Below, piece after piece: positions 7,836 to 36,074 of a stretch of DNA of 64,000 nt. The position numbers and the translations under genes are program-made. The notes beneath the pieces were generated by a model. It did not search any database, was not told the origin of the DNA, and saw only the letters and a list, made by a program, of their open reading frames with translations. Each line of letters starts with the position of its first letter. Position 1 is the stretch's first letter. Source of the DNA: Candidatus Woesearchaeota archaeon (GTDB taxonomy: Archaea; Nanobdellota; Nanobdellia; Woesearchaeales; UBA10216); contig JACPTG010000004.1 of assembly GCA_016192905.1 (NCBI GenBank), positions 173,734-237,733 of the forward strand, given 5' to 3'.

Positions 7836-8350
7836 TGTTTCACCCTTGCGTGCTTTAAAAAGCCGAGTATAATCCGCGCAGCCTCCTGAGGGCTTGCTTC
7901 TGAAGTGTCAATAACCACATCCGCAATCCCAAAGTATCTCTTCTCCCTTTTCCTCAAAACCTGCCTTATCTCAGCAACCGCGCCCTTCCCGGTAATGGAC
8001 GGCCTGCCACTGCCAGCTATCCTTGAGGCAATCACTTCACTGTCAGCAGTCAGGAGAATAACCAGATTTTTTTTCCGGTCAAACCTTATCCTGCTTTCTG
8101 TAAATGCGCCGCCTCCGGTCGCAACCACAGCGCGACCTGACCTCAGGGCAGCCCTTACCGCCACTCTTTCCAGAGACCTCAGCCTTTTCCACCCTGATTT
8201 GGCCACCAGCTCAGGAATGGTCATTTTTGCAAGCCTCTCAACCTCATCATCAGTGTCAATGAACCTGGATTTAAGCTTTCTTGAAAGAATTTTCCCAACC
8301 GCAGTCTTGCCAACACCCCGGTATCCTGTAAGAACTATGTTCATCAGCAA
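7832..8350 (-). CDS. aroK: shikimate kinase, bacterial P-loop (AroK/AroL) type
   Basis: 172 aa. Walker A (LTGYRGVGKTAVGKIL), ATGGG, and an AroK-like layout. It is not a GHMP-family kinase. Confidence 0.82.
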   Translation of the reverse strand: MLMNIVLTGYRGVGKTAVGKILSRKLKSRFIDTDDEVERLAKMTIPELVAKSGWKRLRSLERVAVRAALRSGRAVVATGGGAFTESRIRFDRKKNLVILLTADSEVIASRIAGSGRPSITGKGAVAEIRQVLRKREKRYFGIADVVIDTSEASPQEAARIILGFLKHARVKQ

Positions 8351-9612
8351 AGCCTCTCAAGCTCCCTGAAAAAATCCGGGAAAGTCTTTGAAACACACTC
8401 AGCACCCCTAATAACCATGCCCTTCACTGCAAGCCCTGCAATGGCAAAGCTCATGGCCATCCGGTGGTCATTGTAAGTTTCAATGGCAGAACCTTTCAAA
8501 TGGCCTGGTTCTATTTGGAGCCTGTTTTCAGTCTCAGTTACCTTTGCCCCCATCTTTCTCAGTTCTGTTGCCGTTGCCCTAATCCTGTCAGTTTCCTTTA
8601 CTCTAAGGTTGCTTATGTTCATTATACTCGTCCTTCCATTTGCAAAGGCTGCAACGACTGCCAAGGTCTGTGCAGTGTCAGGCATGCTGTTCATGTCAGC
8701 AACTATCCCCTTGAGGCTGCCGCCTTGGACTTCTATCCAGTCCTTGCCTTTCCTTACCCTGCAACCCATCTTTCCAAGCAGGTCAGGGAATTTTGCATCG
8801 CCCTGCACGCTTTTCGGGTTTACCCCTGTTACCTTTACCCTTCCCTTTGTCACTGCGGCTGCAGCGAAAAAGTATGATGCGTTGCTAAAGTCGCCCTCCA
8901 CAAAGTAGTTTCTCGCTGAGTATTTTTGGCCGGATTTCACTGACAACTCCCTGTAGTTCCTGTTGGAGGCCCTAATACCAAATGCCGTCATTGAGTCAAT
9001 CGTCATATCAACGTAGGGCTTTGAAGTCAGGTCTCCTGTAATTTCTATCTGGACATCATTATCAGCGTATGGGGCAACCATGAGCATTGCGCTCAGGTAC
9101 TGGCTGCTTAATGAACCATCTAAATTTGCCTTTCCCCCTTTCAGCCTCCTGCCCCTTACAGTCACAGGCGGAAAACCATGACTCGTCTTTATCTCTGCGC
9201 CAAGCTGCCTCAGCCCCTCCTCCAAGTCGCCTATCGGCCTTTGCCTCATTCTTGCTTCCCCGTCAATAATGGTGCGGCCTTCTGCCAATGTTGCCGCGGC
9301 TGCGATGAACCTTACTGTAGTTCCGGAGTTGCCTGCGAATATGGTTTTCTTAGGAGCCGCCATAGCTTCCGGCTTCCCTTCAACAGCGATTGTCCCACTG
9401 TTCTGGCCTATCAGTGCGGCATTAACCCCAAGCTGTTTCAGGGCGTTTATCATGTGCCTGGTGTCATCGCTGTCAAGGCAGTTGCTCAGCGTTGACCTGC
9501 CATCCGCCAGGGCTGCTATCATTAGTGCCCTGTTTGTGAAGCTCCTTGACCTTGGGCAGCCGATGCTCGCGTTTAGTTCACCTTCACATACAGGCTTCAC
9601 AGAGATTTCCAT
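8344..9612 (-). CDS. aroA: 3-phosphoshikimate 1-carboxyvinyltransferase (EPSP synthase)
   Basis: EPSPS fold repeats present: …LGNSGTTVRF…, …RPIGDLEEGLRQLGA… Start chosen at internal MEISVKPV. Confidence 0.9.
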   Translation of the reverse strand: MEISVKPVCEGELNASIGCPRSRSFTNRALMIAALADGRSTLSNCLDSDDTRHMINALKQLGVNAALIGQNSGTIAVEGKPEAMAAPKKTIFAGNSGTTVRFIAAAATLAEGRTIIDGEARMRQRPIGDLEEGLRQLGAEIKTSHGFPPVTVRGRRLKGGKANLDGSLSSQYLSAMLMVAPYADNDVQIEITGDLTSKPYVDMTIDSMTAFGIRASNRNYRELSVKSGQKYSARNYFVEGDFSNASYFFAAAAVTKGRVKVTGVNPKSVQGDAKFPDLLGKMGCRVRKGKDWIEVQGGSLKGIVADMNSMPDTAQTLAVVAAFANGRTSIMNISNLRVKETDRIRATATELRKMGAKVTETENRLQIEPGHLKGSAIETYNDHRMAMSFAIAGLAVKGMVIRGAECVSKTFPDFFRELERLC

Positions 9613-11054
9613 AAAGATTCCCTCATTATTTCTATCGGAGCTTTTTTGCCGGTCCACAGCTCAAACTGGCCGGTTGCCTGGTGAAGGAGCATTGCGAGGC
9701 CGTCCACTGTCATGCAGCCGGATTCTTTTGCCTCTCTTAACAGCCTTGTTACAGGCGGCTTGTATATAACGTCCATGACGACACCCCTCAACTGCGCTTT
9801 CGGGACAGGGGTTTCGCCATCATTTGGGCTCATTCCAACAGTGGTGCAGTTTATCAGGATGTCGTATTCCATCTTATCCAGGTCGCTTATCGGGCCATAG
9901 CCACACCCAAGCTTTTCCGCAACCTGCCTGGCCCTCTCCACAGTCCTGTTCAGGATGAAAAGCCTGCAGCCTTCCCTTGACAGCTCGAACGCAACTGATT
10001 TTGCAGCCCCTCCAGCGCCGATGATTACTACGACTTTGCCCTTAATGGCGGTCTTTTCCAAAAGCGCCTTCTTCGCGCCCATGCCGTCAGTGTTGTGCCC
10101 AATAAAGATGCCGTCCCTGACTGAAATCGTATTCACAGCGCCAATCTTCCCGGCGTTTTCATCCATGCTGTCAAGATGCCTAATTACCTGCTCCTTGTAG
10201 GGCGTTGTTACAGAAAACCCGGCAGGGTTCAGCTTCCTGATTTCACCAAGGAAAGCAGCCAGATTGTCAACCTCGAATTTCATGTGCACGAAGTTAAGGC
10301 CCAATTTCTCATACACAGGGTTGAACATGAAGAAGCTCCTGCTGTACCTCGCAGGCCTTCCGATAGTGCCAAGAATCCCTGTTTTCCGGTTCAGCCTATC
10401 AGCCCTGTAAACATCCTTCATAAGCGAAAACTGAATCTGCCCTGTAGCAGACTCCATTCCTGAATCAAGGGCGGCATAGGTGAGAAAAGAGCCAAACACC
10501 CTGTAAAGAATCCTGCTAAGCTCGCCCTTCTCCCCCATGCAAACAGCTATGAAAGGCGTTTTCAAATCCTTCACAGACTCAAACATGCGGATATTGTCAA
10601 CTATGTCATTTGCAAAAGTGGCGACCTTGGCAATATCGCAGCCAACGCCTTCCAATTCGGCAAAAATCCTTCTTATTTCCCCTATGTCAGCCGGAGTCTC
10701 TTTTAGGTTATGGAAGGAAACAATCAGCCTGCAGCTTCCCCTGCCGTCCGCCAGCATCTTAATCGAATCCGAGCCGCTGCTAAGCTCCACATCAACATAA
10801 TCTGCGCCAAGGCTTATGGCGTCCTTAAGCAGCGCTATCCTTTCGTCCTCGCTTCCCCTGTAAAAACCGCCCTCCTCCTTTTTCCTGCAAGTCACTATAA
10901 CCTGCTTTTTCCTGGCGCTGAGCAGCCTGCCAAGCCTTGGGCTTTCCATGCAGTCAATCCTGAGCTCAATTATGTCTGCACCCCTTGCCGCCGCTGTTTC
11001 CATACAGTCCAGGGCTTCCTGCTCAGTTTTCGCTGTTATGGGGATGCATATCAT
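9597..11054 (-). CDS. bifunctional 3-dehydroquinate dehydratase (type I) / shikimate dehydrogenase fusion
   Basis: 485 aa. The N-terminal half is type-I DHQase: ICIPITAKT…GADIIELRIDCM. The C-terminal half is SDH: …HNTDGMGAKKAL…VVIIGAGGAAKSVA…. Confidence 0.85.
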   Translation of the reverse strand: MICIPITAKTEQEALDCMETAAARGADIIELRIDCMESPRLGRLLSARKKQVIVTCRKKEEGGFYRGSEDERIALLKDAISLGADYVDVELSSGSDSIKMLADGRGSCRLIVSFHNLKETPADIGEIRRIFAELEGVGCDIAKVATFANDIVDNIRMFESVKDLKTPFIAVCMGEKGELSRILYRVFGSFLTYAALDSGMESATGQIQFSLMKDVYRADRLNRKTGILGTIGRPARYSRSFFMFNPVYEKLGLNFVHMKFEVDNLAAFLGEIRKLNPAGFSVTTPYKEQVIRHLDSMDENAGKIGAVNTISVRDGIFIGHNTDGMGAKKALLEKTAIKGKVVVIIGAGGAAKSVAFELSREGCRLFILNRTVERARQVAEKLGCGYGPISDLDKMEYDILINCTTVGMSPNDGETPVPKAQLRGVVMDVIYKPPVTRLLREAKESGCMTVDGLAMLLHQATGQFELWTGKKAPIEIMRESLWKSL

Positions 11055-17725: not shown

Positions 17726-18001
17726 ATGCTCAAGACCAAGAAGCTTATTGAAACCTATGACATGAAGGTATTCACCGACTCAGGGGAGTACTTCGGAGAC
17801 GTTGAGGAGGCAATATTAACACCAACAAAGATAATCGGCTGGAGGGTCAAGGCTACAAGAACGAGCTTCCTGAACAAAATCCTCGGAGGAGGGGCAAAAG
17901 GGGTAATAGTGCCGCACCAGCACGTAAAGTCAGTGGGCGACGTCATGATAATAAGCAAAATGGCAGTGCCAACCTACAGCAAGGAAGCAGAGAGTGACTA
18001 G
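17726..18001 (+). CDS. PRC-barrel domain protein
   Basis: 91 aa. YDMKVFTDSGEYFGDVEEAIL…IIGWRV… SD GGAGGGGT and a TATA (aactttaaataaat) lie upstream. Confidence 0.72.
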   Translation: MLKTKKLIETYDMKVFTDSGEYFGDVEEAILTPTKIIGWRVKATRTSFLNKILGGGAKGVIVPHQHVKSVGDVMIISKMAVPTYSKEAESD

Positions 18002-20397
18002 CGCTGCTTCAAGATGTCCTTGACAAGCTCAACCACTTCAGGATATTCTTCAGGGTGAAGCATCCCTGTATGGAACGTCCTCACGCCTGAGCAGTTCCCT
18101 GAAACGTAGAAATTATCCGCGAAAGGCAGGTATGCGCTGGATGCCTTCACCACGCCATCCCCGTCCTCGCCAACTGTCCTGCAGCCTGTTCCCACAATGT
18201 TGTAAACAGGAATTCCCGGAGGCGGGCTGGCAGCAAGCTTTCTCATGAAAAAAGAGCCCGCTTCCATATCCCGGCACTCCTTCTCCTCGCCAAAAAACCC
18301 GCAAATCTGGCTTTCAGTTGAATTGATGCCCTGGTTTGGTGTGCCAAGCATAATCAGGGCTGCAACAGAGCCATCGCCAAAAATACTCATATAACTCCTT
18401 GAGACCAGGCCGCCCATTGAATGGGCAACGATAACAACCTTATCCCTGCCGGTGCGCCTCTTAACAACCTCAACAAGGTCCCGCAGCCTAACAGCAAGGG
18501 CTGTTATTTCCTGGCTTGGCCGCCTAACAGGCTCATAGCCGACCACATCATAATAGTAAGTGACCGCTATGAGAACAGGCTTTCCTGACAAACCCCAGTC
18601 TCCTTCAGAGACGTTCCCGGACTCATAATAAAGGACTCCTGCGTTGACAAATCCCTCCTTCTGAAGCTCACGCTGGATGGGCCCAAAGGCGCTGGCGCTG
18701 AATTCAGGCTGGTTCCTGCTATTGAATGAACGGCCGTGCACTAAAACAACCGGGAAGGTCTGGCTGTCATTCCTGCAGAAAACACAGCAGGGCCTGCACT
18801 GGCCCAGCACGCAGCAGACAGGGTAAGGAGTGTCCAGCGAGAAGTTAACATACTGAAGGCTGACATTGACTGCCTGAACGTCAATGAATGAAAGATTTTG
18901 CCTGCCGAAATTAACCGTGACATCAGGAAGCCCATCACAGTGGTATTTCCTGAATTCAGCTACAGAAGGGCTTAAGTTAAAGGCAAGCCTCAATGCAGGG
19001 TCGGGTGAAAGGGCCTTGTTGAGTGAAAGATTGAATTCTAATTCCTGAAGCGAGGCAATGAATTCAGGCCGGGAAAGCAGGCCGCGCATGTCAAGGTATG
19101 AATAAAGGTAAGGATATGCATCGGAAAAATTTTTTGAAATATTCATCGAATCCAAGACCCTTGTTGAGTAATAAACCTGACCCCAGTAAAATGTGCTCTG
19201 CAGATCCTCTGCATCGGCGCAGGCATAACTCATCAACGAGCTGATGTTTGTGCGGGTGACAGGGGGGTAGTACCTAGGGCCATAATAAGCCGGGCAATAG
19301 CCCTTAACCCTGCAAATGCGGTCCACCTCCCCTGAGAAATTAACCTGGGAATCAGCATAATCAGAGAAAGAGGAAAGGGAATAAGCATGGGCTTCGTCCA
19401 GCTCAGAAAGCAAAAGCTGCTGCTCAGCCAAAACCAGGCTGATGTTTGAATAGTTCCTTATAAACAAACTGTAAGCAGACTGGTTAACAAGGTTTGCAAT
19501 TTCACGCAGCCTTGCCTGCTGGAAAGTGTCGTTAATCTCCACAGCAACCGCGAAATCATCAGAAGCGTTTGTCTCCCCTGAAAGCAGGGTCTCATACTGC
19601 AATAGGCTTTGGTTATAAGCATCCACCAGCAGATTTAGTTCTGAATTAAGGCTAACCACCAAATCCTTGTCAGGCAGAGTGCGGTTTCTGAATTTATCAG
19701 CCAGCAACGCGAATTCCTGCTGGCTCCACAATGTCCTGAAGGACTCAGCTTCAATCAAAAGCTTCTGGACATTATCATTCAAAGCAGACCTGCCCTTTGC
19801 CAGCGAATCAATCCTGGCAGTCTCCTCTGCAAAGGCAAGCCTGGCCTCAAGAACCTGGGCGCCTGAGTAAAACCCGTTCACATCCCCAAGGTAAGAAGCC
19901 AGAGGCTGCCCAAGCTTTCCCTTAAGCTCAAGCTCCTCAGCAGTGTAGTCATAATTAAGGGTGACAAAAGAGGATGTCACAAACGGGCCATAAGAGGAAG
20001 AGCATCCAAACCGCCCAATGTTCCTGCACGCTGCCTCGAAATTGTACACAAACTGGCCCTGGCCACGCCTGGAAAGACTAAGCGAATAATTCCTAGGAAA
20101 AGCCTCGCCGCGCTTCAGCAGGACCGTGCCGTTATCCAAAACACGGCCTTCACTGGTGTCAACAAACCTGTAGCTGCATTCGGCACTGCAAAGAGTCTTT
20201 GGAAGCGCAACCAATTCAAATGAGGCATTAACCTCATCCCCATAATGCGCCCTGTAACTGGCCTGGGAAGGGCTAACCCTTGCGGAAATATCAGCAGTGC
20301 CGATAACGTTCAACAATACTGCCAGGATAATGGTGGACAAAGCAACAACAACAAACAGCCCTGCAAGGAAAATCTCGCGCTTCCGTGACCTTCGCAT
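17998..20397 (-). CDS. large membrane-anchored extracellular protein with C-terminal alpha/beta-hydrolase (lipase-like) domain
   Basis: 799 aa. N-terminal signal-anchor. More than 20 N-x-S/T sequons. The C-terminus has VLVHGRSFNS…VVIVAHSMGGLV, an AHSMG lipase nucleophile elbow. Confidence 0.65.
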   Translation of the reverse strand: MRRSRKREIFLAGLFVVVALSTIILAVLLNVIGTADISARVSPSQASYRAHYGDEVNASFELVALPKTLCSAECSYRFVDTSEGRVLDNGTVLLKRGEAFPRNYSLSLSRRGQGQFVYNFEAACRNIGRFGCSSSYGPFVTSSFVTLNYDYTAEELELKGKLGQPLASYLGDVNGFYSGAQVLEARLAFAEETARIDSLAKGRSALNDNVQKLLIEAESFRTLWSQQEFALLADKFRNRTLPDKDLVVSLNSELNLLVDAYNQSLLQYETLLSGETNASDDFAVAVEINDTFQQARLREIANLVNQSAYSLFIRNYSNISLVLAEQQLLLSELDEAHAYSLSSFSDYADSQVNFSGEVDRICRVKGYCPAYYGPRYYPPVTRTNISSLMSYACADAEDLQSTFYWGQVYYSTRVLDSMNISKNFSDAYPYLYSYLDMRGLLSRPEFIASLQELEFNLSLNKALSPDPALRLAFNLSPSVAEFRKYHCDGLPDVTVNFGRQNLSFIDVQAVNVSLQYVNFSLDTPYPVCCVLGQCRPCCVFCRNDSQTFPVVLVHGRSFNSRNQPEFSASAFGPIQRELQKEGFVNAGVLYYESGNVSEGDWGLSGKPVLIAVTYYYDVVGYEPVRRPSQEITALAVRLRDLVEVVKRRTGRDKVVIVAHSMGGLVSRSYMSIFGDGSVAALIMLGTPNQGINSTESQICGFFGEEKECRDMEAGSFFMRKLAASPPPGIPVYNIVGTGCRTVGEDGDGVVKASSAYLPFADNFYVSGNCSGVRTFHTGMLHPEEYPEVVELVKDILKQR

Positions 20398-20748: not shown

Positions 20749-20873
20749 AATGTCCCTGAAACTGAAAGAGTGGTAAAATGGCAAAGGCCACCTTAGATAA
20801 GCTGTCTGCACCACCAACAAAAAATCACAGTAAACTATATAAAAGAACCAGGGTTTCTTAACAATTGTTAAAA

Positions 20874-21233
20874 ATGATGCGGCTTCCACAGGAGATACAG
20901 GTATGGTATGTGCTGCCTGCATTAAGGAGGGAGCTTGCCATATTGCTGGCGCATTCCACGCCGAGGAAAGAAATAGCAAAAACACTCGGGGTATCAGAAG
21001 CGGCAGTATCCCAATACCTGAGCTCAAAAAGAGGCAACAATGTGGCATTTGACAGGCAGATAATGGGCCAGATAGCAGCCGCAGCCGCGCGGATAAGCAG
21101 AGACAGCAGCCAGGCAATGGCTGAGCTGATAAGGCTGTCAGAGCTGCCGGGCGTAATGCAGGCGATGTGCCGCCTGCATAAAGAACAGGAGCCTTCTGTG
21201 GAGAAGGGCTGCGACATCTGCTTCAGGAGATAA
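20874..21233 (+). CDS. HTH transcriptional regulator with C-terminal Cys cluster
   Basis: HTH segment RKEIAKTLGVSEAAVSQYL. C-terminus …CRLHKEQEPSVEKGCDIC. TATA (ctatataaaag) upstream. Immediately precedes sufB. Confidence 0.55.
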   Translation: MMRLPQEIQVWYVLPALRRELAILLAHSTPRKEIAKTLGVSEAAVSQYLSSKRGNNVAFDRQIMGQIAAAAARISRDSSQAMAELIRLSELPGVMQAMCRLHKEQEPSVEKGCDICFRR

Positions 21234-21234
21234 C

Positions 21235-23652
21235 ATGGCAGAACTAGACCTATTGAATCTGGACTATGAGGACAAATACGGGTTCAGAGACCCTGAAGTC
21301 TACGTCAAAAAACTGCAAAAAGGCCTCTCAGCAGAAGTGGTCCGGGAAATATCAGAAACAAAAGGCGAGCCAGAATGGATGCTCAAATTCCGGCTGAAAG
21401 CGCTTGACATATTTTACAGGAAAAAGATGCCTCAATGGGGCGCAGACCTGTCTGCAATAAACTTTGACGACATCATCTACTACATCAAACCATCTGAGAG
21501 AAAGGCAACAAACTGGGAGGACGTGCCTGAAAAAATCAAGCAGACCTTTGAAAAGCTAGGCATACCCGAGGCTGAGAGAAAATTCCTTGGCGGCTCAGGC
21601 GCGCAGTATGAATCAGAAGTCGTGTACCACAAGCTCAGGGAAGACCTTGAGAAGAAGGGAGTGGTGTTCCTCGACACCGATACCGGCCTGAAGGAGTATG
21701 AAAGCCTGTTCAAGCAGCACTTCGGGACTGTGGTTCCCCCCCACGACAACAAGTTTGCCGCGCTCAACAGCGCAGCATGGAGCGGCGGGAGCTTCATCTA
21801 TGTCCCGAAAAACGTAAAGGTGGACATGCCCCTGCAGGCCTATTTCAGGATAAACGCCCAGAGCATGGGACAGTTTGAAAGGACGCTTATAATGGCAGAT
21901 GAGGGGGCGTCTGTTACATACGTCGAGGCCTGCACAGCCCCCATGTATTCAACCAATTCGCTGCATGCGGCCGTGGTTGAGCTTATCGCAATGAAAAATT
22001 CCAAAATCAGGTACACCACCATACAGAACTGGTCAAGCAATGTGTACAACCTTGTAACAAAAAGGGCATTCGCCTATGAGCATGCATTTGTCGAGTGGAT
22101 TGACGGGAATTTGGGCTGTTTATCCGGCGACGCACAGGTTTTCCTAAACAGTAACCTCAAGCCTATTTCGGAAGTGCAAGCGGGCGATAGCATTTTTGCG
22201 ATGGATGGCTATTTCAATTTAGAAAAGCGAAAGGTTGCCAGCAAAAAATTCAGCGGCAAGCAAAAAATTTTCAAGCTTAAGACACTAAACCACCGTGAAA
22301 TAAAGGCCACTGCAAGCCACCCTTTTCTTATTTTCAGAAAGCTTGGCAAATTCAGCTTTGCTGAATGGACCCCGCTTGATAAGATAAAGATTGGCGACCT
22401 AATCGCCATCTCGGGCCACATCCCCGACTCTGGAGAGCCGTTAAAAATTACGTTTTCAAAAAAAGGCATTAAAGAACTCAAAATCCCCGATGAAACCAAT
22501 GATGATTTGCTATGGCTAATGGGGGTTTACATTGGAGATGGCTATTGCGACAAAAACAGAGTATATTTTGCCGTTCCTGAAACGGACAAGGCCTGCCCCA
22601 AGCTTGTAAGGCTGCTTAAAGAGATTTTCGGAGTTGCCGGGGAAAGGAAGGGGGTCGTCCTTAGAATTGCCTCGGTAGACTTGGTAAGGTTTATCAAGCA
22701 AACTCTTGGGTTCTATGGCACTGCCCAAACCAAACGGATACCTGGCTGGATTTTTACCATTCCAAAATCCCAGCGGCTTGCCCTATTAGACGGATATATA
22801 GCCGCTGATGGATACATCCGCGAAAATCATACAAACATATCCATAACCAGCTCTAACAGGCAGCTTCTTTCCGAAGTGAAAATGCTGGCAATAACCTGCG
22901 GTTTAAACCCGATGAAAATAAGCACATGGACCAGACGGGAGTTAAAGCCCCTTGGCAAGGAAATTAAGGAATATACACACCACTTTCTCTATTTTGGGGA
23001 GGGAAAATTCGAGAAGGACGTTGTTTTCTGTCCAGTTTCAGATATTACCTTCTGCGGCGAAGAGGACACATGGGATATAGAAGTTGAAGACAGCCATAAC
23101 TTTGTCGCAAATGGATTTATTGTTCATAACTCAAATATCACCATGAAGTACCCGAGCGTTTACCTACTCGGAAGAAACGCGAAGGCAGACATACTATCCG
23201 TCGCGTTCGCTGGCAAGGGCCAGCACCAGGATGCTGGCGGAAAGGCGCTTCATTTTGCTCCGGACACCACATCAACAATAATCTCAAAGTCGATAAGCAA
23301 AGGCGGGGGAAGGACCTCATACAGGGGCCTTTTACATGTTGAGAAGGGAGCGACAGGCGTAAAGTCAAACGTGAGATGCGACGCGTTAATACTGGATGAG
23401 GCATCAAGGTCAGACACATATCCGTACATGAAAATCGAGGAGCAGGACACAACCATAACCCATGAGGCGACAGTTGGAAAAATCGGCGAGGACAAGATAT
23501 TCTACCTAATGAGCCGCGGACTGACCGAGCAGCAGGCAATCGCAATGATAGTCCTTGGATTTGTGGAACAGTTCACCAAAGAACTGCCAATGGAATATGC
23601 TGTGGAACTCAACAGGCTGATAAGGCTTGAAATGGCAGGAAGCGTAGGATGA
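21235..23652 (+). CDS. sufB: Fe-S cluster assembly protein SufB, interrupted by an intein
   Basis: N-extein 294 aa (…FVEWIDGNLG) and C-extein (SNITMKYPSVYLLG…EDKIFYLMSRG…) together make ~466 aa of SufB. Confidence 0.9.
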   Translation: MAELDLLNLDYEDKYGFRDPEVYVKKLQKGLSAEVVREISETKGEPEWMLKFRLKALDIFYRKKMPQWGADLSAINFDDIIYYIKPSERKATNWEDVPEKIKQTFEKLGIPEAERKFLGGSGAQYESEVVYHKLREDLEKKGVVFLDTDTGLKEYESLFKQHFGTVVPPHDNKFAALNSAAWSGGSFIYVPKNVKVDMPLQAYFRINAQSMGQFERTLIMADEGASVTYVEACTAPMYSTNSLHAAVVELIAMKNSKIRYTTIQNWSSNVYNLVTKRAFAYEHAFVEWIDGNLGCLSGDAQVFLNSNLKPISEVQAGDSIFAMDGYFNLEKRKVASKKFSGKQKIFKLKTLNHREIKATASHPFLIFRKLGKFSFAEWTPLDKIKIGDLIAISGHIPDSGEPLKITFSKKGIKELKIPDETNDDLLWLMGVYIGDGYCDKNRVYFAVPETDKACPKLVRLLKEIFGVAGERKGVVLRIASVDLVRFIKQTLGFYGTAQTKRIPGWIFTIPKSQRLALLDGYIAADGYIRENHTNISITSSNRQLLSEVKMLAITCGLNPMKISTWTRRELKPLGKEIKEYTHHFLYFGEGKFEKDVVFCPVSDITFCGEEDTWDIEVEDSHNFVANGFIVHNSNITMKYPSVYLLGRNAKADILSVAFAGKGQHQDAGGKALHFAPDTTSTIISKSISKGGGRTSYRGLLHVEKGATGVKSNVRCDALILDEASRSDTYPYMKIEEQDTTITHEATVGKIGEDKIFYLMSRGLTEQQAIAMIVLGFVEQFTKELPMEYAVELNRLIRLEMAGSVG
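22117..23130 (+). mobile_element. SufB intein with LAGLIDADG homing-endonuclease domain (338 aa)
   Basis: Starts CLSGDAQVFL (block A). LAGLIDADG blocks LLWLMGVYIGDGYC and LALLDGYIAADGYI. Ends …VANGFIVHN followed by extein +1 Ser. Confidence 0.85.
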
Positions 23653-24770
23653 TAGAACTCCTTTCTGCCAGGGCAGTTGAAAATGAGGGGTTCTGGCTCA
23701 AGCGGATTAGAAAGGAGGCTGTTTCAGCAATTGAATGCCTAACGCCTGACAAAAGCCTTTCAGACACCGGTCTGGAGGCGGCCAGAATTATTGGACAGCA
23801 GGAAAAGCCCGAGATATCCATTAACGGCGGGGCGGCCGACATCATGCAGCTGGGCCAGGATGAATGGAAAAGGATTTATGAGAATGCGGTAATCAGGCAT
23901 GATGAGGACTTTTTCACTGCGCTCAACACGGCAGTATTCAATGCAGGGACCATGATTTCAGTGCCAAAGGGGGGCAGGGCCGAGATCAACAGGAAAATTG
24001 TCAGCAAGGGGGCATCCATAATAAGGACAGTGATAATGCTAGAGGAAGGCTCAAGCCTGTCCTTCACAGACACAGCGGAGTCTGCGGAAAGAAACTTTTT
24101 CCACAGCGAGGCCATGGAGATAATAATGAAGGAAAATTCCAATTTGGACCTCACATTCATCAACAGCCTGAACAACAACACAGTGTCTGTCTTCAACCGC
24201 AAGGCAGTGCTGGGAGAAAATTCATCCATTTCCTGGAGCACGCTGACATCAGGCTCATCAATTTGCAAAACAAGGCGGCAGACCAGGCTTGCCGGCCAGG
24301 GGGCATCGGTAAAGGATGCCGAGATAATGCTGTCGGCAGGGAGCCAAAGGTTTGACGTAAGGGCGGATATCATCCATGAGGGCAGGCATACACAGAGCAA
24401 TGTGCTGGCAAAAGGGATACTTGCCGGAGAATCGCGCCAGAAAGCGTATGGAAACGTAAACATAAAAGACACAGCAAAAGGGACAAATTCTGTCCTTGAG
24501 GAACATTCAATCATCCTAAGCCCAGGCGCCAAGGCGGACTCAATACCTGGCCTTGAGATAGAAACAAATGATGTAACTGCAAAGCATGCCGCCACATGCA
24601 CGCAGCTTGACGAGGAAAAGCTGTTCTACATAACCAGCAGAGGGGTGTCACCTACCGAGGCACGGAAGCTTGTAACAAGGGGATTCCTGGCCTCAGCCAT
24701 AGGCAAAATGAGCAACAAGGAACTATTAATGGAGAACGCTGAAAAATGGCTACAACACTCAGCCTGCTGA
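23649..24770 (+). CDS. sufD: Fe-S cluster assembly protein SufD
   Basis: 373 aa with a SufBD beta-helix C-terminus (…EEKLFYITSRG…). Its ATGA overlaps the sufB stop. Confidence 0.85.
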   Translation: MIELLSARAVENEGFWLKRIRKEAVSAIECLTPDKSLSDTGLEAARIIGQQEKPEISINGGAADIMQLGQDEWKRIYENAVIRHDEDFFTALNTAVFNAGTMISVPKGGRAEINRKIVSKGASIIRTVIMLEEGSSLSFTDTAESAERNFFHSEAMEIIMKENSNLDLTFINSLNNNTVSVFNRKAVLGENSSISWSTLTSGSSICKTRRQTRLAGQGASVKDAEIMLSAGSQRFDVRADIIHEGRHTQSNVLAKGILAGESRQKAYGNVNIKDTAKGTNSVLEEHSIILSPGAKADSIPGLEIETNDVTAKHAATCTQLDEEKLFYITSRGVSPTEARKLVTRGFLASAIGKMSNKELLMENAEKWLQHSAC

Positions 24771-25966
24771 CCAAAACAAGAAAGGACTTCCCAATACTTG
24801 GAAGAAACGTAAACGGAAAGCCGCTGGCATACCTGGACAACGCAGCAACAAGCCAAAAGCCAAGGCAGGTAATAGAAGCAATTTCAGCATATTATGAAAA
24901 TTACAATGCAAACATACACAGGGGCATACACCGCCTGAGCGAGGAGGCTACAGCGGCATATGAAGAGGCGCATAAGAAGGCCGCGGGCCTCATTGGAGCC
25001 CGGGAAGGGGAAATTATCTTTACCAAGAACACTACGGAATCATTAAACCTGCTGGCTTATTCCATAGGGCTAACCCTAAGGCCCGGGGATGAAATAGTCC
25101 TTACAGAGGCAGAGCACCACAGCAACCTTGTGCCATGGCAGCAGGTAGCCAAAATAACCCAATCGCAGGTGAAATTCGCGCAGGTAAACGAAAAGGGCGA
25201 GCTGGACATGGAGCACTTCCAAAGCCTTGTAACCAGGAATACGCGCATAGTTGCAGCAGCGCATGTGACCAACGCATTTGGCGCAATCAACCCAGTCAAG
25301 GAAATGGCTGAAATAGCGCATTCAGAAGGGGCGCTGATGGTCGTTGATGCAGCCCAGAGCGTGCCGCACATGCCTGTCTCTGCCAGCCAGCTTGGCTGCG
25401 ACTTTATCGCATTCTCCAGCCATAAGATGCTTGGGCCAACCGGGATAGGCGTGCTCTATGGAAGGAAAAGCGAGCTTGAAAAAATGCACCCATTCCTTTA
25501 CGGAGGGGACATGATAAAGGAGGTAAGTTACGAGGAAACCAAGTTCAACGAGCTCCCATGGAAATTCGAAGCAGGAACGCCAAACATATCAGGGGCTATT
25601 GGATTCGGGGCGGCAATAGACTACCTCTGCAAAATAGGGTTGGACAGCGTGCAAAGCCACGAGCAGGCCCTCACCAGACACGCACTAAAAAGACTTGCCG
25701 AGGAGAAAGACGTCCTTGTTTACGGGCCTGAGAAAAGGGCAGGGATAATCTCATTCAACATCGGGAACGTGCACCCGCATGACGCAGCCGCAATACTTGA
25801 CATGGAAGGCATAGCGGTAAGGGCAGGCCACCACTGCGCAATGCCGCTGATGAAAAAAATGGGGTTGCAGGGGACTGTAAGGGCAAGCTTCTACCTCTAC
25901 AATACAAAGGCTGAAATTGGCAGGCTCGCAGAGGCGCTTGAAAAGGTAAGGAAGGTGTTCAAATGA
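24746..25966 (+). CDS. sufS: cysteine desulfurase SufS (class V aminotransferase)
   Basis: 406 aa. …SSHKMLGPTGIGVLYG… (PLP Lys); RAGHHCA (active-site Cys). Confidence 0.92.
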   Translation: MATTLSLLTKTRKDFPILGRNVNGKPLAYLDNAATSQKPRQVIEAISAYYENYNANIHRGIHRLSEEATAAYEEAHKKAAGLIGAREGEIIFTKNTTESLNLLAYSIGLTLRPGDEIVLTEAEHHSNLVPWQQVAKITQSQVKFAQVNEKGELDMEHFQSLVTRNTRIVAAAHVTNAFGAINPVKEMAEIAHSEGALMVVDAAQSVPHMPVSASQLGCDFIAFSSHKMLGPTGIGVLYGRKSELEKMHPFLYGGDMIKEVSYEETKFNELPWKFEAGTPNISGAIGFGAAIDYLCKIGLDSVQSHEQALTRHALKRLAEEKDVLVYGPEKRAGIISFNIGNVHPHDAAAILDMEGIAVRAGHHCAMPLMKKMGLQGTVRASFYLYNTKAEIGRLAEALEKVRKVFK

Positions 25967-26352
25967 ACGCTGAAATATACCAGCAGCACATTCTGGACCA
26001 TTATTCAAACCCGAGGAACCGGAGGGAAATCGAAAATGCTGACTTGCAGTACAGGGACAGCAACCCCCTATGCGGAGATGAGGTTGCCATGTATGCAAAG
26101 CTAAAGGATGGTCTCATGGAGGACTTGAGCTTCATAGGCCGAGGCTGCGCAATCAGCCAGGCTTCAGCATCAATGATCACCGAAGCCCTGAAGGGAGCAA
26201 GCCTCAGCCAGGCTGCCGAAATGGGAAAAGAAGATGTAACAAGAATGCTCATGATACAAATCAGCCCAACAAGGCTCAAATGCGCATTACTGCCGCTAAA
26301 AACACTCCAGGCCGGAATAAGGGTTTACCAAAATGGCGCTGCTCGAAATTAA
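25963..26352 (+). CDS. sufU: SufU/IscU-like sulfur-acceptor/scaffold protein
   Basis: 129 aa. NPLCGDEV, GRGCAISQASASMITE, PTRLKCALL. Confidence 0.78.
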   Translation: MNAEIYQQHILDHYSNPRNRREIENADLQYRDSNPLCGDEVAMYAKLKDGLMEDLSFIGRGCAISQASASMITEALKGASLSQAAEMGKEDVTRMLMIQISPTRLKCALLPLKTLQAGIRVYQNGAARN

Positions 26353-27094
26353 CAACCTAAAAGTACAGGTGGAAGGCCAGGAAATAGTTAAAGATGCAAC
26401 CCTGTCAGTTGAGGCAGGACAGGTGGCGGCCCTGATGGGCCCAAACGGGTCAGGGAAAAGCACGCTGGCATACAGCCTAATGGGGCACCCGAAATACAAG
26501 GTTACATCAGGAAGCATCATCCTTGGAGGAAAGGAAATTACAACTGCAACCCCTACAGAAAGGGCAAAGGCAGGGCTGTTCCTCTCCTTCCAGTACCCAA
26601 GCGAAATACCCGGCGTAAGCGTTGAAAATTTCCTCAGGGAGGCATACAATTCAGTAAGGGAAAAAAAGATTGGAGTGATGGAATTCCACAAGCAGCTTGC
26701 AGAAAACATGGGGCTGCTGGGCATACCTGAAAGCTTTGCAGGAAGGCACATAAACGAAGGGTTCTCAGGAGGGGAAAAGAAGAAGATGGAAATACTGCAG
26801 ATGTCAATACTGGCCCCGAGAATGGCGCTGCTGGACGAAACAGACTCAGGCCTGGACGTGGACGCCCTGAGGACTGTTGCCGAAGGAATAAAAAGGACAC
26901 TCAACCATGAAAGGGGAGTTCTTCTCATCACGCATTACCAGCGAATCCTTGAATACATAAAGCCGGACAAAGTTTATATAATGAAGTCAGGCAGGATAGC
27001 TGCGGCAGGAAACGCAGACCTGTCTGTAATGGTGGAAAAAAAGGGATATGACTGGGTGACTGACAATGGCCACGTTCAAAGCAAAGCTGCTTGA
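26333..27094 (+). CDS. sufC: Fe-S cluster assembly ATPase SufC
   Basis: 253 aa. GPNGSGKSTL, the ABC signature FSGGEKKKMEIL, and LLDETDSGLD. Confidence 0.92.
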   Translation: MALLEINNLKVQVEGQEIVKDATLSVEAGQVAALMGPNGSGKSTLAYSLMGHPKYKVTSGSIILGGKEITTATPTERAKAGLFLSFQYPSEIPGVSVENFLREAYNSVREKKIGVMEFHKQLAENMGLLGIPESFAGRHINEGFSGGEKKKMEILQMSILAPRMALLDETDSGLDVDALRTVAEGIKRTLNHERGVLLITHYQRILEYIKPDKVYIMKSGRIAAAGNADLSVMVEKKGYDWVTDNGHVQSKAA

Positions 27095-27761
27095 AACAAT
27101 ACAGGAAACCCCAAGGGTCAAGCTTCTAAGGTTCGCAAGGCCAGCCAGCTTTGACTTCAAGCCAGGCCAATTCATAACAGCATCAATAGAAGGCCTCAAA
27201 GGGCCCCATGGCGAAACGGTAAAAAGAAGCTACTCAATAGCCTCCTCGCCGCACGACAAGGACTACATAGAACTCTGCGTGGCAAGGGCTGAAACAGGCT
27301 TGTTCTCAAACGCCCTCCACAAACACAAGCATGGAGAGGAAGTCATAATAACAGGGCCATACGGGGTTTTCCAGCTTAGGGAACCTGTCCATCCAAACAC
27401 CACATTTGTGGCAGGAGGCAGCGGAATCGCGCCAATAAGGAGCATGATAAGGACGCACATGCACAGGGGCGAAAAAACAAACCTCTTTTACGGGTTCAGG
27501 AGCCCTGAAGAATTCATCTACAGGAAGGAACTCACGCAACTCGCGGCAAAGGGCAAAATAAAGCTCTTCCTGACCATCGACAAGCCAGCCAAGGGCTGGA
27601 AAGATGAGGTGGGGTATGTCTCTGAACTCCCTGCGAAGCACGCGAATTACGAAAAGACAGACGCATACATATGCGGGCCGCCAGCAATGGTGACTGCAAC
27701 AATAAAGGCGCTTACAGAGCTCGGATTTGACCAGAAAAGGATATACAGGGAACAGTGGTAG
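27066..27761 (+). CDS. FAD/NAD(P)-binding oxidoreductase (ferredoxin-NADP reductase-like), co-operonic with suf
   Basis: 231 aa. RSYSIASSP is the FAD-binding RxYS motif. GGSGIAPIRSM is the NAD(P)-binding motif. No Fe-S Cys cluster. Confidence 0.78.
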   Translation: MATFKAKLLETIQETPRVKLLRFARPASFDFKPGQFITASIEGLKGPHGETVKRSYSIASSPHDKDYIELCVARAETGLFSNALHKHKHGEEVIITGPYGVFQLREPVHPNTTFVAGGSGIAPIRSMIRTHMHRGEKTNLFYGFRSPEEFIYRKELTQLAAKGKIKLFLTIDKPAKGWKDEVGYVSELPAKHANYEKTDAYICGPPAMVTATIKALTELGFDQKRIYREQW

Positions 27762-30786: not shown

Positions 30787-31410
30787 TTACGCATGCGCCC
30801 GCTTGATGTGCTTGAGCCTTGCGAAGTTCTCCCTCTCCATCTCCTCAAGCCTGAGCCTTACGTAGGAAGCTGATGCCTCAAGCCTTGGAATGGTGATTTT
30901 CTCAAGCGCATTAACCTTCCTCTTGGTCTTCTCAATCTCCTGCAGCAGCCTCCTCAATGCGGTTTCGTGCTCTGCCGCCTCCAGAACCTTCTCAACAAGC
31001 TTCTCGTAGGCAAGCGCTGCCTCGTCAATCTTAATAGAGCCGGAAAGGTAGCCAAAGCCCCTGGTGAAAATGCGCTTCTGCACAGCGCCCTTCTTTATGC
31101 TGGGCACCAGAACGCCCATCACGTTCTTGGCCTCAAGCTGGATAACCGGCTTGTCCTTAACAGCCAGCGCTACAGACTTAACAGCCAAATCAGAGTCAAG
31201 CGCCCTGGTGATATTCATCTTCCCAAGCGCATGCCTGTACTCCTCCACAAGCTCAGAGCGAACATTCCTGGCCTTTTCAAGTGCCTTGAAGAACTCAATA
31301 ATAAGGCCGTCACGCTTCTTCTTAAGCATGCTATGGCCAGACCTTGCCAGCTTAATCTTCTTCCTGAGAAGAAGCAGCTCGCTTCTATTTGGAGTTACGT
31401 TCTGGGACAT
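30787..31410 (-). CDS. atpD: A1AO (V-type) ATP synthase subunit D
   Basis: 207 aa. Coiled-coil subunit with the pattern typical of subunit D (…[25 protein letters not shown]…). Confidence 0.9.
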
Positions 31411-34357
31411 TCTTGTAGTACTTCTTCCTCAGCTCAGGGCTTATCCTGACAAGCTCAGCCTCAGGCAGGGCTCCCAAAAGAGCCCAAGCAACCCTAAGCG
31501 TATCCTCCTGGACAGACCTGTTCTCATTCCTGGCCTGCCTGACGAACACGTCCTCAAAGGAGGCTGCGAACTTCAAAAGGCGGCGGTCCCTCTCAGCAAG
31601 CGACTCCTCGCCGACAATAGCAGCCAGGCCCCTGAGGTCGCGGCCCTCAGCATAGGCTGCGTACAGCTGGTCTGAAACCTGCTTGTGGTCCTCCCTTGTC
31701 TTGCCCTGGCCGATGCCAAGGTTCATCAGCCTTGACAGGGATGGCAAAACATCAATCGGAGGGTAAATGTTCTTCCGGTGAAGCTCCCTGCTCAGGACAA
31801 TCTGGCCCTCGGTAATGTACCCTGTCAGGTCAGGAATCGGATGGGTGATGTCATCACCAATCATGGTCAAAATCGGAATCTGCGTAACAGAGCCCTTCTT
31901 TCCCTTGACAATCCCGGCCCGTTCATACAGCGAAGCGAGGTCAGTGTACATATAGCCGGGGTAGCCCCTCCTCCCGGGAATCTCCTCCCTGGCCGCGCCA
32001 ATCTCACGAAGTGATTCACAATTTGATATTATTAAGCCATTTCCAACCAAGAATTTTCCTGTTTCTGGAATGGTGACATCAAAAACAAACAAGTCTTTTG
32101 GTTCAGTTACTTTAATGTCTGTGATTTCGTCCAAAATGAATTCATCATTTGCATGTTTCTTTAACTCTTTCAGGATTTCATCATTTTCTGCAACGAGTTG
32201 AGAGAACTTTTCCATGCATTTTACAAGTTGCACTTTACTAATTCTCTTAAAGCCCCGTTCAACTTCAGACAACTGGCCGTTACTGGAAATTTGAGTTTGT
32301 TTTATTCCATATTTATGCCTCAATGCCCTTATTAATGTTCCGCAAACTCTCGGCGCATATTCAAATTCAGCGCTCTCTAAAGCATTATCCTTTACCTTCT
32401 CTAATTTATGTCTTTTATGCGGGTGTGATGCGCCAACTTTTTCAACAAACAAGTTAACATACCTTTTGCCTCTTATGATTATGTCAAACACATTACTCTC
32501 TCCATAAGTGCCTGTAGAGTGCCTATCAACAATGATAGAAGCTATTCCAAGTCTCCTTAAAAGCTGTTGGAGCCTTTTGATAACTTTTTCATTCACAGAA
32601 GTATATTGAATGACCCTTCTATTGACAATGCAGCTGCCATCGCCATCAAAGTAGCCTCTCAAAAATGCAGAAATCAAGTTTTCAGGCAATGAGAACAATT
32701 TCTTAAATTCCTTATCTTTCAAACCAAAGAAAGTTGCTATGTCGCAGTAAGCCTTATTATTAATTCTGCATATACTTACTCCATCTTGACTCTTGAAATC
32801 TGTAATCTGGATGTTGGGGAAAATTGTTGTAATCTTTTTCTTGTATATTTTTCTCAAATCAGAACTTGTATTTGAGAAATCCACGCGATAGATGTGGCTA
32901 TTCTCATTTCTTATCAATGAGCCATCAGAAGCAACTAGCCCTAGCAAGTAAAGTAAGTCGTCGTTTGCGTATGCCGTCGCTATTTTCAATCTATTGCCGC
33001 CAACATGCGATATGGCTGAAATTGCCTTCTCTATTGGCAACTCAGGACATATTTTAATCAATGCTCGAATCTCTTTAACATTCAAGAAACTTTCAGAATC
33101 TGTTAGCCTTGAATAATTAATGCCCGATTCTTTACATGCTTCCTTCAGTGAACCATACAGTTTTTTCAGTTTTTGTTTGCTGGTTTCCCTGACTAACTTA
33201 TCAAAGAAAACAATTGTGTTTTCATTTAATGCATCTATTATGGAAGGAATAGCCGTATTCACATTTATTTTTGATGTAATTGCGACTCTATCACCTTTCT
33301 TTAATTGGCCTGCAGGCGCCATTCTTAGTCCAAGAATCGTGTCTGTCAGTATCCTATGATTTGGCGTCAAGGTTAATTTGTTTCCTGAGCGAGTTGATAG
33401 TTCTATCATTTGCATTGAAGCTGGAAGCTTTTGAACTCGGGCAATCTGTTTAATGGCATCATTATTACCGTCCCATGTTAGCGCTTTTTCTTCCTTATCC
33501 CTAATATCAACATCAGAACCTCTTGTTTGACTTTCAACAAATTCTTTAATTGTTGTTATTCTTCCATCACCTAAAAACATCTCAGTTTCTCCAGCGACGC
33601 AGTAGTTCGTCATATCAGTCAATATTACCAGCACATGCATGTCCTTCTCATACGCAAAATACTCTGCTGCTGTAAGCGCCATTCTTGGAGTTATAAGCCT
33701 CTCCACAGCAGGGTCATCTGCCAGGTTGAGGAATACGAGAGACCTCTTAAGCGCGCCAGTGTTCTCGAAATCAGTAATAAAGCGCTGCGCTTCCTCATTG
33801 GTAATGCCCATTGCGGCAAAGATGACGACAAAGCCAGCCTCTTTGCCCAGAACCCTTGCCTGCCTTGCAATCTGAAGGGCAATGTCGTTGTGCGGCAGGC
33901 CAGAGCCTGAGAAAACAGGCAGCTTCTGCCCCCTGACAAGCGTATTCATCAGGTCAATGGTTGAAATACCTGTCTGGATGAAGTCCTCAGGGCCTGCCCT
34001 GGCCACCGGGTTAATGGCAGCCCCGGTAATGTCAAGCTTATCCTCAGGAATAATTTCAGGGCCGTTGTCAATGGGCTTTCCAGCGCCGCTAAGAATCCTT
34101 CCAAGCATGTCCGGGGAAACAGGCAGCCTGATGTTTTCGCCAAGGAACCTTACGCGGGCATCCCTGTCCAGGCCAGAAGTGCCCTCGAAAACCTGGACTA
34201 CGACTATATCATCACTTGTATCAAGAACCTGGCCTGTCTTTAATTCACCTGAAGGCGTGGCAATCCTTACCAGGTCATTATAGCCAACAGGGTCTGTCTT
34301 CCTTACAAAGACAAGCGGGCCTGCAATCCGTGAAACAGTCTTATACTCCTTTTCCAT
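31385..34357 (-). CDS. atpB: A1AO (V-type) ATP synthase subunit B, interrupted by an intein
   Basis: The N-extein ends …ILTDMTNY. The C-extein begins [36 protein letters not shown]. The exteins sum to ~464 aa. Start taken at MEKEYKTV. Confidence 0.9.
32021..33601 (-). mobile_element. intein in ATP synthase subunit B with LAGLIDADG endonuclease domain (527 aa)
   Basis: Starts [22 protein letters not shown] blocks [14 protein letters not shown] and [11 protein letters not shown]. Ends [11 protein letters not shown] with +1 Cys. In frame. Confidence 0.85.
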
Positions 34358-36074
34358 CCCTAAACTCCCTCTCCATGTCAGCCACAATCCCCTTGAGGAA
34401 TGGCTCGTAATCCTTCTCAAACTTCACATCGCCAATCCTGTCCTTTGCCTTAATCTCCAGAATCCTCTGCGCCTTCCCGCCTGATTCAAGGGCAGCGTAC
34501 GCAAGGTCAGCATACTTCAGGACAGTCTTCATTATGAGATAGGTTTTCTTAGGCTGCGAATACGTGTCAACAGGGTGGAATGCGTTCTGCTGCAGCAGGA
34601 ACTCACGGGCCATCCTCGCTATCCTCAGCGTAATCCGCTCACGCTCAGGCAGGGCATCAGAGCCAATAAGCTGGACAATCTCAAGCAGCCTGTCCTCCTC
34701 CTGAAGCACGGCCATAAGCCTGTCAACACAATTTCTCCAATCAGCAGCAACGTTCTTCGCAAACCAGGGCTCAAGGATGTCTGCGTACAGCGAGTAGGAA
34801 GTAAGCCAGTTTATTGAAGGGAAATGCCTGCGCTGGGAGAGCTTTGCATCCAAAGCCCAGAATACCTTAACAACCCTAAGGGTGCTTTGAGTTACAGGTT
34901 CTGAAAAATCCCCGCCTGGCGGCGAAACAGCGCCTATGACAGAAACAGAGCCTTCCTTTCCAGACAGCGCGACAACCCTGCCAGCCCTTTCGTAAAACTC
35001 CGCAAGCCTTGTTGAAAGGTATGAAGGGTAGCCCTCCTCACCAGGCATCTCCTGAAGCCTTGAAGAGATTTCCCTCATGGCCTCAGCCCACCTTGAAGTT
35101 GAGTCAGCCATAAGGGCAACGCTATAACCCATGTCCCTGTAATACTCAGCGATTGTAACTCCTGTGTAAATTGAAGCCTCCCTGGCGGCAACAGGCATGT
35201 TTGAAGTGTTCGCGATAAGCACAGTCCTGTTCATAAGCGGCTTATCAGTCCGCGGGTCAACCAGCTTAGGGAACTCCTCCAAGACCTCAGTCATCTCATT
35301 GCCCCGCTCGCCGCAGCCTACATAGACTACGACTTCTGCATCGGCCCACTTGGCCAAGGCCTGCTGAGTCACCGTTTTTCCCGACCCGAATGGCCCCGGG
35401 ATAGCAGCCACTCCTCCCTTGGAAAGCGGAAACAGCGCATCAAAAACCCTCTGGCCGGTAATCAGGGGAAGGTTGGGAATAAGCTTTTTAGAGGAAGGCC
35501 TGGGTCTCCTCACAGGCCACTGCTGCATAAGCGTAATTTTCGCGCCATTCTCCAAAGTGCAAACCTCGTCCTCAACGGTGAACGAGCCCTCTCTGATATC
35601 CTTCGCCTTTCCTGCGGAAATGTCTGCAGGGGCAGGGAACCTGTGTTCTGTGTTAAGCTCCTGGACAGTCCCGATAATCATTCCCGGAGAAACCAAATCG
35701 CCTTTTTTTACAGCAGGCTTAAACTCCCACTTCTTCCTGCGGTCCAAGCCAGGGGCAGTGATGCCGCGGGATATGAAATCTCCACGCTGCCTCCTAAGCT
35801 CTGCAAGCGGCCTCTGGATGCCATCATAAACAGAGTTAAGAAGCCCGGGGCCAAGCTCAACAGAAAGCGGAAGGCCTGTAGTCTCAACAACCTCGCCAGG
35901 CTTCAGGCCTGAAGTGTCCTCATAAACCTGGATTGTCGTGCGGTCATCATTAATCTGGATAACCTCACCCATAAGCTTCTCCCTGCCCACGCGAACAACG
36001 TCGTACATCCTGGCGCTGAGCCCCTTCGCAACGACCACAGGGCCTGAAATCTGGTAAAGCCTTGCCATTTTCAA
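34341..36074 (-). CDS. atpA: A1AO (V-type) ATP synthase catalytic subunit A (no intein)
   Basis: 577 aa. GPFGSGKT Walker A; …[22 protein letters not shown]…. Confidence 0.92.

Follow-up and report, generated by a model that had tools for sequence, protein, structure and literature searches.

We analysed a 64,000-nucleotide (nt) stretch of the Candidatus Woesearchaeota archaeon contig JACPTG010000004.1 (GenBank assembly GCA_016192905.1, positions 173,734 to 237,733 of the forward strand; hereafter the window), in which the gene for the Fe-S assembly protein SufB is interrupted by an intein. The sufB open reading frame (ORF) encodes a precursor of 805 amino acids (aa) that reads ...FVEWIDGNLG/CLSGDAQVFL...FVANGFIVHN/SNITMKYP around the two intein borders (here and below a slash within a sequence or a pair of residues marks a splice junction or insertion site). 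The insert spans precursor residues 295-632, from Cys295 to Asn632, lies in frame and is followed by Ser. Pfam splits SUFBD_core (1.9e-76) into two stretches of the precursor, and also recognises SufBD_N (3.1e-07), Intein_splicing (1.3e-18, aa 307-632) and LAGLIDADG_3 (1.9e-09). The first-pass annotation, made from the letters of the window, had placed a 338-aa LAGLIDADG intein here. Its coordinates and sequence strings are exact, and the domain hits, the PDB matches, the fold and an allele with an empty site, described below, agree with it. The coordinates of this and the other features are collected in Table 1.

Once the insert is removed, the flanks join into a complete SufB of 467 aa. The spliced extein aligns in one unbroken span (residues 1-467) with the intein-less SufB proteins P0114 and P0116-P0118 (467-469 aa) at 82-83% identity, and without a break with E. 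coli SufB (PDB 5AWF, E 6e-105). The two exteins are therefore contiguous in SufB, and the misfit between them on which the original call could have foundered is not found. Around the spliced junction the window's own sequence reads ...GGGCTCAAATATCACCATG....

The insert carries the parts expected of a splicing domain of the Hint type and of a LAGLIDADG homing endonuclease inserted into it. For a measure of conservation, we extracted from database proteins 108 inteins located at the identical junction, 103 of which are full-length. Cys1, Thr65, His68, Asp320, His337, Asn338 and the Ser at position +1 are invariant in all 108, and all of them are present in the window copy. The endonuclease residues Asp141, Lys206 and Asp231 are retained in 94-98% of the full-length copies, and all three are intact in the window. 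We take Lys206 to be the active-site lysine of the endonuclease, following what is generally known of LAGLIDADG enzymes. The five remaining same-junction copies are mini-inteins of 153-188 aa that have no endonuclease domain. This family picture of endonuclease-bearing copies, lost aspartates and mini-inteins is the one expected of a homing cycle.

The fold points the same way. An AlphaFold2 model of the intein, built from a 16-sequence alignment, has a predicted local distance difference test score (pLDDT) of 92.6 and a predicted template-modelling score (pTM) of 0.90; in it, Asp141 stands at the end of helix 129-141 and Asp231 at the end of helix 217-231. The top Foldseek matches of the model are endonuclease-bearing inteins, namely TliVMA (7QSU, E 3.5e-24), 7QSS, PhoVMA (7QST), PI-PkoII (2CW7), PI-SceI and PI-PfuI. 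Mini-inteins rank next and match the Hint part only, and both the full and the mini-intein matches have a Foldseek probability of 1.00. The sequence of the insert alone retrieves from the PDB the VMA inteins 7QSU and 7QSS (~1e-12), PI-PkoII, and the DnaB and DnaX mini-inteins. We conclude with high confidence that the insert, positioned between Gly294 and Ser295 of SufB, belongs to the canonical class-1 inteins and has a LAGLIDADG homing endonuclease embedded in it.

The insertion site lies in a strictly conserved part of the host protein. By alignment to 5AWF, the junction G294/S295 corresponds to G322/S323 of E. coli. Both residues are invariant in 17 intein-less SufB proteins, where they form part of the motif W-x-D-x-N-x-G/S-x-x-T-M-K-Y-P. 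In a model of the spliced SufB the junction falls within a tight turn of three residues that links strands 285-293 and 297-306 in the core of the beta-helix, with a local pLDDT of ~80-93. Judging from this model, a 338-aa insert at the turn should block formation of the helix, and the precursor is expected to be inactive because the site lies in the beta-helix core. Such inactivity would agree with the reported failure of unspliced M. tuberculosis SufB to bind SufC or SufD (Huet 2006, reviewed in PMC8529194).

The conserved residues, together with established intein chemistry, suggest how a functional protein would be recovered. After translation, the Hint domain would excise itself. Cys1 would form a thioester with the aid of Thr65 and His68 of block B, and the N-extein would then be transferred to the hydroxyl of Ser+1. 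Cyclisation of Asn338, aided by His337 and Asp320, would free the intein, and an O-to-N shift would yield a normal 467-aa SufB able to join SufC and SufD.

Inteins at this junction are widespread. The identical 805-aa protein is deposited at NCBI as 'SufB [Candidatus Woesearchaeota archaeon]', and five contigs that come from several samples encode it. Among the 120 best database hits, the same junction is filled in 108, with inteins that are 28-68% identical to that of the window, and ~30 of those 108 proteins have a second intein at another SufB site. We also searched one genome per GTDB species with an intein profile, which gave 449 relatives; the best 79 loci were inspected. In 48 of these 79 the intein sits at the exact G294/S295 junction, and ~17 of the remaining loci have related inteins at another site in SufB. 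The archaeal hosts of the allele are DPANN lineages (Woesearchaeota, Aenigmatarchaeota, Micrarchaeota and Nanoarchaeota), and the bacterial hosts comprise Armatimonadota, Chloroflexota, Eisenbacteria, Bipolaricaulia, Planctomycetia, Acidimicrobiia and other Actinomycetota. In a representative protein library the window intein has 71 matches at E<=1e-30 and 1,569 at E<=1e-10, which places it within the large LAGLIDADG-intein superfamily. Automatic names given by JGI label some of the homologues 'SufB/intein/homing endonuclease'. A virus was considered as the carrier of the allele, but a scan of viral contigs gave only inteins of 22-31% identity and hence no evidence for this idea. The window intein thus belongs to a widespread allele at the G/S junction (E. 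coli 322/323); a literature search that fell short of key primary papers found neither a published intein at this SufB site nor published SufB inteins in DPANN archaea or Woesearchaeota.

To map the sites used in SufB, we projected every large insertion found among the 120 best hits onto the spliced extein. This gave four intein sites, each with canonical junctions (Table 1); SufB is thus an intein hot-spot with at least four sites. Proteins with two inteins are frequent among Acidimicrobiia and DPANN SufBs, and a Frankiaceae metagenome-assembled genome (L066, JAFAZI010000163) has three inteins in one sufB gene, at AQYE/S, at YVEG/C and, as a 155-aa mini-intein, at DGNLG/S. At the empty M. tuberculosis-type site of the window, the -1 residue is Ala (YVEA/CTAP; positions 21928-21930), where Gly is nearly invariant in other SufBs. 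This Ala could be the footprint left by a lost intein, or a substitution that prevents homing there. A further SufB (P0121 from ENA, 532 aa) contains an internal tandem duplication of its YVHYVEGCTAP...NLVTKRA segment. The duplication probably stems from faulty assembly, or else is a scar of recombination at the M. tuberculosis-type intein site.

The mobility of the intein can be addressed through a sibling contig (L080; Logan SRR4343435_20444), which is syntenic with the window over 20.6-28.7 kb at 96-98% DNA identity and encodes a SufB of 823 aa (P0067; sufB at nt 972-3443). L080 is without exactly the 1014-nt intein of the window, its G294/S295 site being empty, and carries a 1068-nt (356-aa) intein at G232/C233 (YVEG/CTAP), a site that is empty in the window. 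Its intein-less junction reads GACGGGAATTTGGGC/AGTTCAGCGACGATGAAGTACCCG, and a longer stretch of the empty allele reads GACGGGAATTTGGGCAGTTCAGCGACGATGAAGTACCCG. The spliced exteins of the window and L080 differ at 54 positions over 1404 nt. In a patch of four codons directly 3' of the window intein (extein nt 883-894), 10 of the 12 nt differ, the window having TCAAATATCACC (SNIT) and L080 AGTTCAGCGACG (SSAT), and the patch is flanked by 132 nt upstream and 53 nt downstream that are identical in the two. The binomial P of this clustering is ~4e-11, or ~5e-08 when corrected for all window positions. Another 13 differences between the two contigs cluster within ~50 nt of the intein site of L080.

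The patch resembles the flanks of the two inteins nearest to that of the window. At these codons L001 and L005, the nearest relatives of the window intein (66-67% aa identity), read TCAAAAATCACG and TCAAAAATTACT and match the window at 10/12 and 9/12 positions, as against 2/12 for L080. Homing from a donor of the L001 or L005 type, with a very short 3' co-conversion tract, is the simplest reading of this pattern, and the window intein looks recently acquired. In such an event the endonuclease, acting through Asp141, Asp231 and Lys206, would cut an intein-less sufB at GGGAATTTGGGC/AGT..., and repair from an intein-bearing copy would paste in the intein plus a few flanking codons.

Several observations weigh against this reading. 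A near-identical donor intein was not found among the database and GTDB-species homologues, the best having 66-68% aa identity, and the timing and direction of the event (gain in the window or loss in L080) therefore have to be read from the flank pattern alone. The recoded flank could also reflect selection for resistance to the endonuclease instead of co-conversion. The base composition of the intein differs from that of the exteins (GC 0.44 versus 0.495; GC at third codon positions 0.49 versus 0.60), but the GC of the intein is only modestly unusual within the window (z = -1.5, 7th percentile), and we therefore rejected low GC as a strong sign of foreign origin. Catalytic aspartates or the entire endonuclease domain are missing from some homologues, so membership of the family does not by itself imply that the window copy is an active endonuclease. 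Splicing and DNA cleavage by the window intein are both inferred rather than observed.

These points leave some room for an account in which splicing is kept while the endonuclease is inactive or decaying, which we consider possible if rather doubtful. The intein would then persist as a fixed, selfish relic passed on by vertical inheritance alone, and the difference from L080 would represent a precise loss or an old polymorphism instead of recent homing. That no near-identical donor copy was found fits this account, as do the losses within the family: 4-6 of the 103 full-length copies are without Asp141 or Asp231 and 5/108 are mini-inteins, which is the decay phase expected of a homing cycle. 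The window copy, however, keeps both aspartates, Lys206 and both LAGLIDADG helices, and its endonuclease domain is modelled with high confidence. Moreover, vertical descent explains poorly why a sharply bounded 12-nt patch should resemble the nearest intein relatives and not the 96%-identical sibling.

It is unlikely that the host has turned the intein into a conditional switch, in which oxidative, nitrosative or metal stress inhibits splicing and thereby gates the supply of active SufB. Such a switch has been proposed for M. tuberculosis SufB, whose splicing is redox sensitive and whose unspliced form fails to bind its partners, as cited above. The presence of SufB inteins at four or more separate conserved sites in both bacteria and archaea would suit such a role, as would a position in the beta-helix core, where the precursor should be inactive. 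However, insertion at conserved sites is predicted by selfish homing anyway, and the M. tuberculosis mechanism is a disulfide between Cys1 and Cys+1 (PMC8529194). This redox trap is unavailable to the window intein because its +1 residue is Ser, as it is in all 108 homologues, and the other cysteines of the intein (144, 160, 261, 305 and 313) lie outside conserved columns. The presence/absence polymorphism between 96%-identical strains also argues that the host is not dependent on the intein. Regulation by conditional splicing thus finds no support here, with Ser+1 and the polymorphism both arguing against it. We hold equally improbable the broader proposal that the SufB hot-spot is explained by the post-translational control that conditional splicing would give the host over Fe-S cluster assembly, with the Ser+1 intein as a second, non-disulfide stress switch and alternative inteins segregating in Woesearchaeota populations.

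That the insert is not an intein at all, being an assembly chimera or a permanent domain of the mature protein, is close to inconceivable: the general caveat attached to metagenome-type sequence is set against an identical 805-aa protein on five independent contigs from several samples, the same junction in 108 database proteins and 48/79 of the best reference-genome loci, splicing residues that are all invariant, and an insert that breaks an invariant beta-turn of the SufB beta-helix.

The statement in the first-pass annotation that a second intein lies within 12 kb also holds. This intein is 527 aa long, belongs to the LAGLIDADG type and is situated 8.9 kb from the SufB intein within the B (non-catalytic) subunit of an A-type ATPase. 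Its borders read TNY/C...LIISN/CESLRE, with Ser in place of the penultimate His and Cys at +1, and its GC content is 0.36 versus 0.495 for the window. A close kinship of the two inteins was considered and rejected, as their similarity is only distant (E 6e-5). The classical VMA inteins interrupt the catalytic A subunit, and the window's copy of that subunit is an intein-free protein of 577 aa.

The sufB gene belongs to a bacterial-style operon (sufBDSUC). After DPANN proteins, the best matches of the SufB extein are bacterial (e.g. Armatimonadetes, ~68%), which hints at horizontal acquisition of the suf operon by the Woesearchaeota-labelled lineage. Directly upstream of the operon, on the opposite strand, lies an ORF for a protein of 799 aa. 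It has a membrane anchor at the N-terminus, a composition rich in N-x-S/T and Cys and, at the C-terminus, an alpha/beta-hydrolase (lipase-like) domain. The same contig also carries aromatic amino-acid genes, for anthranilate synthase, EPSP synthase and a fused dehydroquinase/shikimate dehydrogenase. The far end of the window is a stretch of low GC (~0.355-0.365) with short ORFs, including one for a DNA-binding-like protein of 124 aa and small paired ORFs, and may be a separate mobile or accessory island.

Table 1. Features of the sufB locus and of other parts of the window; intein residues are numbered from Cys1.
Feature	Positions	Strand	Basis or remark
sufB precursor ORF	21235..23652	+	805 aa with intein, uninterrupted; stop codon included; second gene of bacterial-style suf operon
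N-extein, SufB residues 1-294, ending ...EWIDGNLG	21235..22116	+	extein alignments
Intein, 338 aa: Hint splicing domain with inserted LAGLIDADG homing-endonuclease domain	22117..23130	+	Pfam, PDB matches, model
Splicing block A (CLSGDAQVFLNS), Cys1 = first nucleophile	22117..22152	+	C1 invariant 108/108
Splicing block B (IKATASHPFL), TxxH = T65/H68	22300..22329	+	T65 and H68 invariant 108/108
LAGLIDADG motif 1 (LLWLMGVYIGDGYC), intein aa 131-144, catalytic Asp141	22507..22548	+	D141 in 97/103 full-length homologues
TKRIPGW segment with Lys206	22729..22749	+	K206 in 101/103
LAGLIDADG motif 2 (LALLDGYIAADGYI), intein aa 221-234, catalytic Asp231	22777..22818	+	Pfam LAGLIDADG_3; D231 in 99/103
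Splicing blocks F and G (TWDIEVEDSHNFVANG-FIVHN): Asp320, penultimate His337, terminal Asn338	23068..23130	+	invariant 108/108
Recoded four-codon patch directly 3' of intein (TCAAATATCACC, SNIT)	23131..23142	+	putative co-conversion tract or altered homing site
C-extein, SufB residues 295-467, Ser295 = +1 nucleophile	23131..23652	+	extein alignments
SufB intein site E126/S127, motif AQYE/SEVVYH	21610..21615	+	empty in window; used by M. kansasii, M. triplex, M. haemophilum
SufB intein site G185/S186, motif WSGG/SF	21787..21792	+	empty in window; 398-aa intein there in P0023
SufB intein site G232/C233 or A232/C233 (E. coli G253/C254), motif YVEG/CTAP	21928..21933	+	empty in window as YVEA/CTAP; M. 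tuberculosis-type
SufB intein site G294/S295, motif DGNLG/SxxTMKYP			filled in window
Small helix-turn-helix (HTH) protein	20865-21233		first gene of suf operon
sufD	23649-24770		suf operon
sufS	24746-25966		suf operon
sufU (NifU_N)	25963-26340		suf operon
sufC	26333-27094		suf operon
FNR-like oxidoreductase	27066-27761		suf operon
suf operon, whole	20865..27761		
ATPase B subunit ORF	31385..34420	-	A-type ATPase, non-catalytic subunit
Intein in ATPase B subunit	32021..33601	-	527 aa, LAGLIDADG
ATPase catalytic A subunit ORF	34341..36074		577 aa, intein-free
Aromatic amino-acid genes	589..11054		
ORF for 799-aa protein upstream of suf operon	17998..20397	-	membrane anchor, lipase-like domain
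Low-GC stretch	61200..64000		small paired ORFs at 61258-61787

For annotation, the consequence of these results is that mature SufB has 467 aa, not 805 aa; the public record of the identical protein says only 'SufB'. Knowledge of how inteins work is unchanged, as the mode of action of the window intein is that of the textbook. What makes the locus most useful is that two ~96%-identical contigs are filled and empty at opposite sites, and that the recoded flank has sharp boundaries. The two form a natural allele pair, with different inteins at different sufB sites and a cluster of flank differences beside each, and are the type of material from which homing, co-conversion tracts and the cycle of intein gain and loss can be studied in uncultivated DPANN archaea. 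Protein engineers might also find a use for the window intein, which is compact (338 aa), has Ser at +1 and retains an intact endonuclease.

The first-pass annotation had also stated that SufB inteins are known in mycobacteria and some archaea, and asked whether the insertion site is the same as in Mycobacterium SufB. The former is correct in general (PMC8891592), the characterised inteins being different alleles; as to the latter, the site, which is the one most often filled among the retrieved SufB homologues, is neither of the two mycobacterial sites identified here. The M. tuberculosis SufB (Pps1) intein of 359 aa is flanked by an N-extein of 252 aa and a C-extein of 235 aa, with His-5, His-38 and Cys+1 (PMC8891592). 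We placed its site by matching these published numbers to mycobacterial exteins: in six of them, exactly 235 aa are counted from CTAP to the C-terminus, with His residues at -5 and -38 relative to that Cys. The M. tuberculosis insertion site is therefore YVEG/CTAP, which corresponds to A232/C233 here.

The M. tuberculosis intein and the window intein share the host protein, a class-1 Cys1, the block-B His, the penultimate His, the terminal Asn, a LAGLIDADG domain and a precursor that is expected to be inactive before splicing. They differ in position and in the +1 residue. The M. tuberculosis intein lies at E. coli G253/C254, directly before C254, the +1 Cys that serves in E. coli as persulfide acceptor (bioRxiv 10.64898/2026.05.18.725997), while the window site is 62 residues downstream and has Ser+1 in place of Cys+1. 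Compared with the window intein, the L080 intein at the M. tuberculosis-type site shows only 24% identity (E 1e-14).

A second mycobacterial allele lies at AQYE/S and has 378 aa; it was found in M. kansasii, M. triplex, M. haemophilum, M. kyorinense, M. conspicuum and others. Presumably this is the intein of the M. gastri Pps1 / PI-MgaI type, given the length of 378 aa and the kinship of M. gastri with M. kansasii. With P0228 as query, the 233 and 294 sites were empty in 119/119 of the retrieved mycobacterial proteins with an AQYE/S intein, and neither M. leprae nor M. tuberculosis SufB was among the 119 mycobacterial proteins returned. M. leprae carries 'SufB-b' (PMC5050341), and the SufB inteins of M. 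leprae, M. lepromatosis, M. triplex and M. xenopi differ from that of M. tuberculosis (PMC8891592). That M. leprae is grouped there with M. triplex, which like M. haemophilum has its intein at AQYE/S, suggests that the M. leprae intein may sit at AQYE/S too. A search for Mycobacterium inteins at the 294 site with a chimeric query (Frankiaceae flanks plus mini-intein) returned almost only intein-less SufBs of Mycobacteriales and a few with AQYE/S inteins, a weak negative. The AQYE/S intein shares with that of the window the SufB host, Ser+1, the HN C-terminus and a LAGLIDADG endonuclease. At 29% identity over the full length (E 5e-41), it is the nearest among the other-site SufB and AtpB inteins compared. 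It differs in its location at E126/S127, in the flexible N-terminal region, as against G294/S295 in the beta-helix. The window intein is thus neither the M. tuberculosis SufB allele nor the AQYE/S mycobacterial allele.

Outside SufB, the best structural and PDB-sequence matches are the VMA inteins TliVMA and PhoVMA (7QSS, 7QSU, 7QST) together with PI-PkoII, PI-SceI and PI-PfuI. These inteins differ from the window intein in host gene and site, have 12-20% identity to it, and form chains of 361-537 residues versus the 338 aa found here; they share with it the Hint horseshoe and the LAGLIDADG layout.

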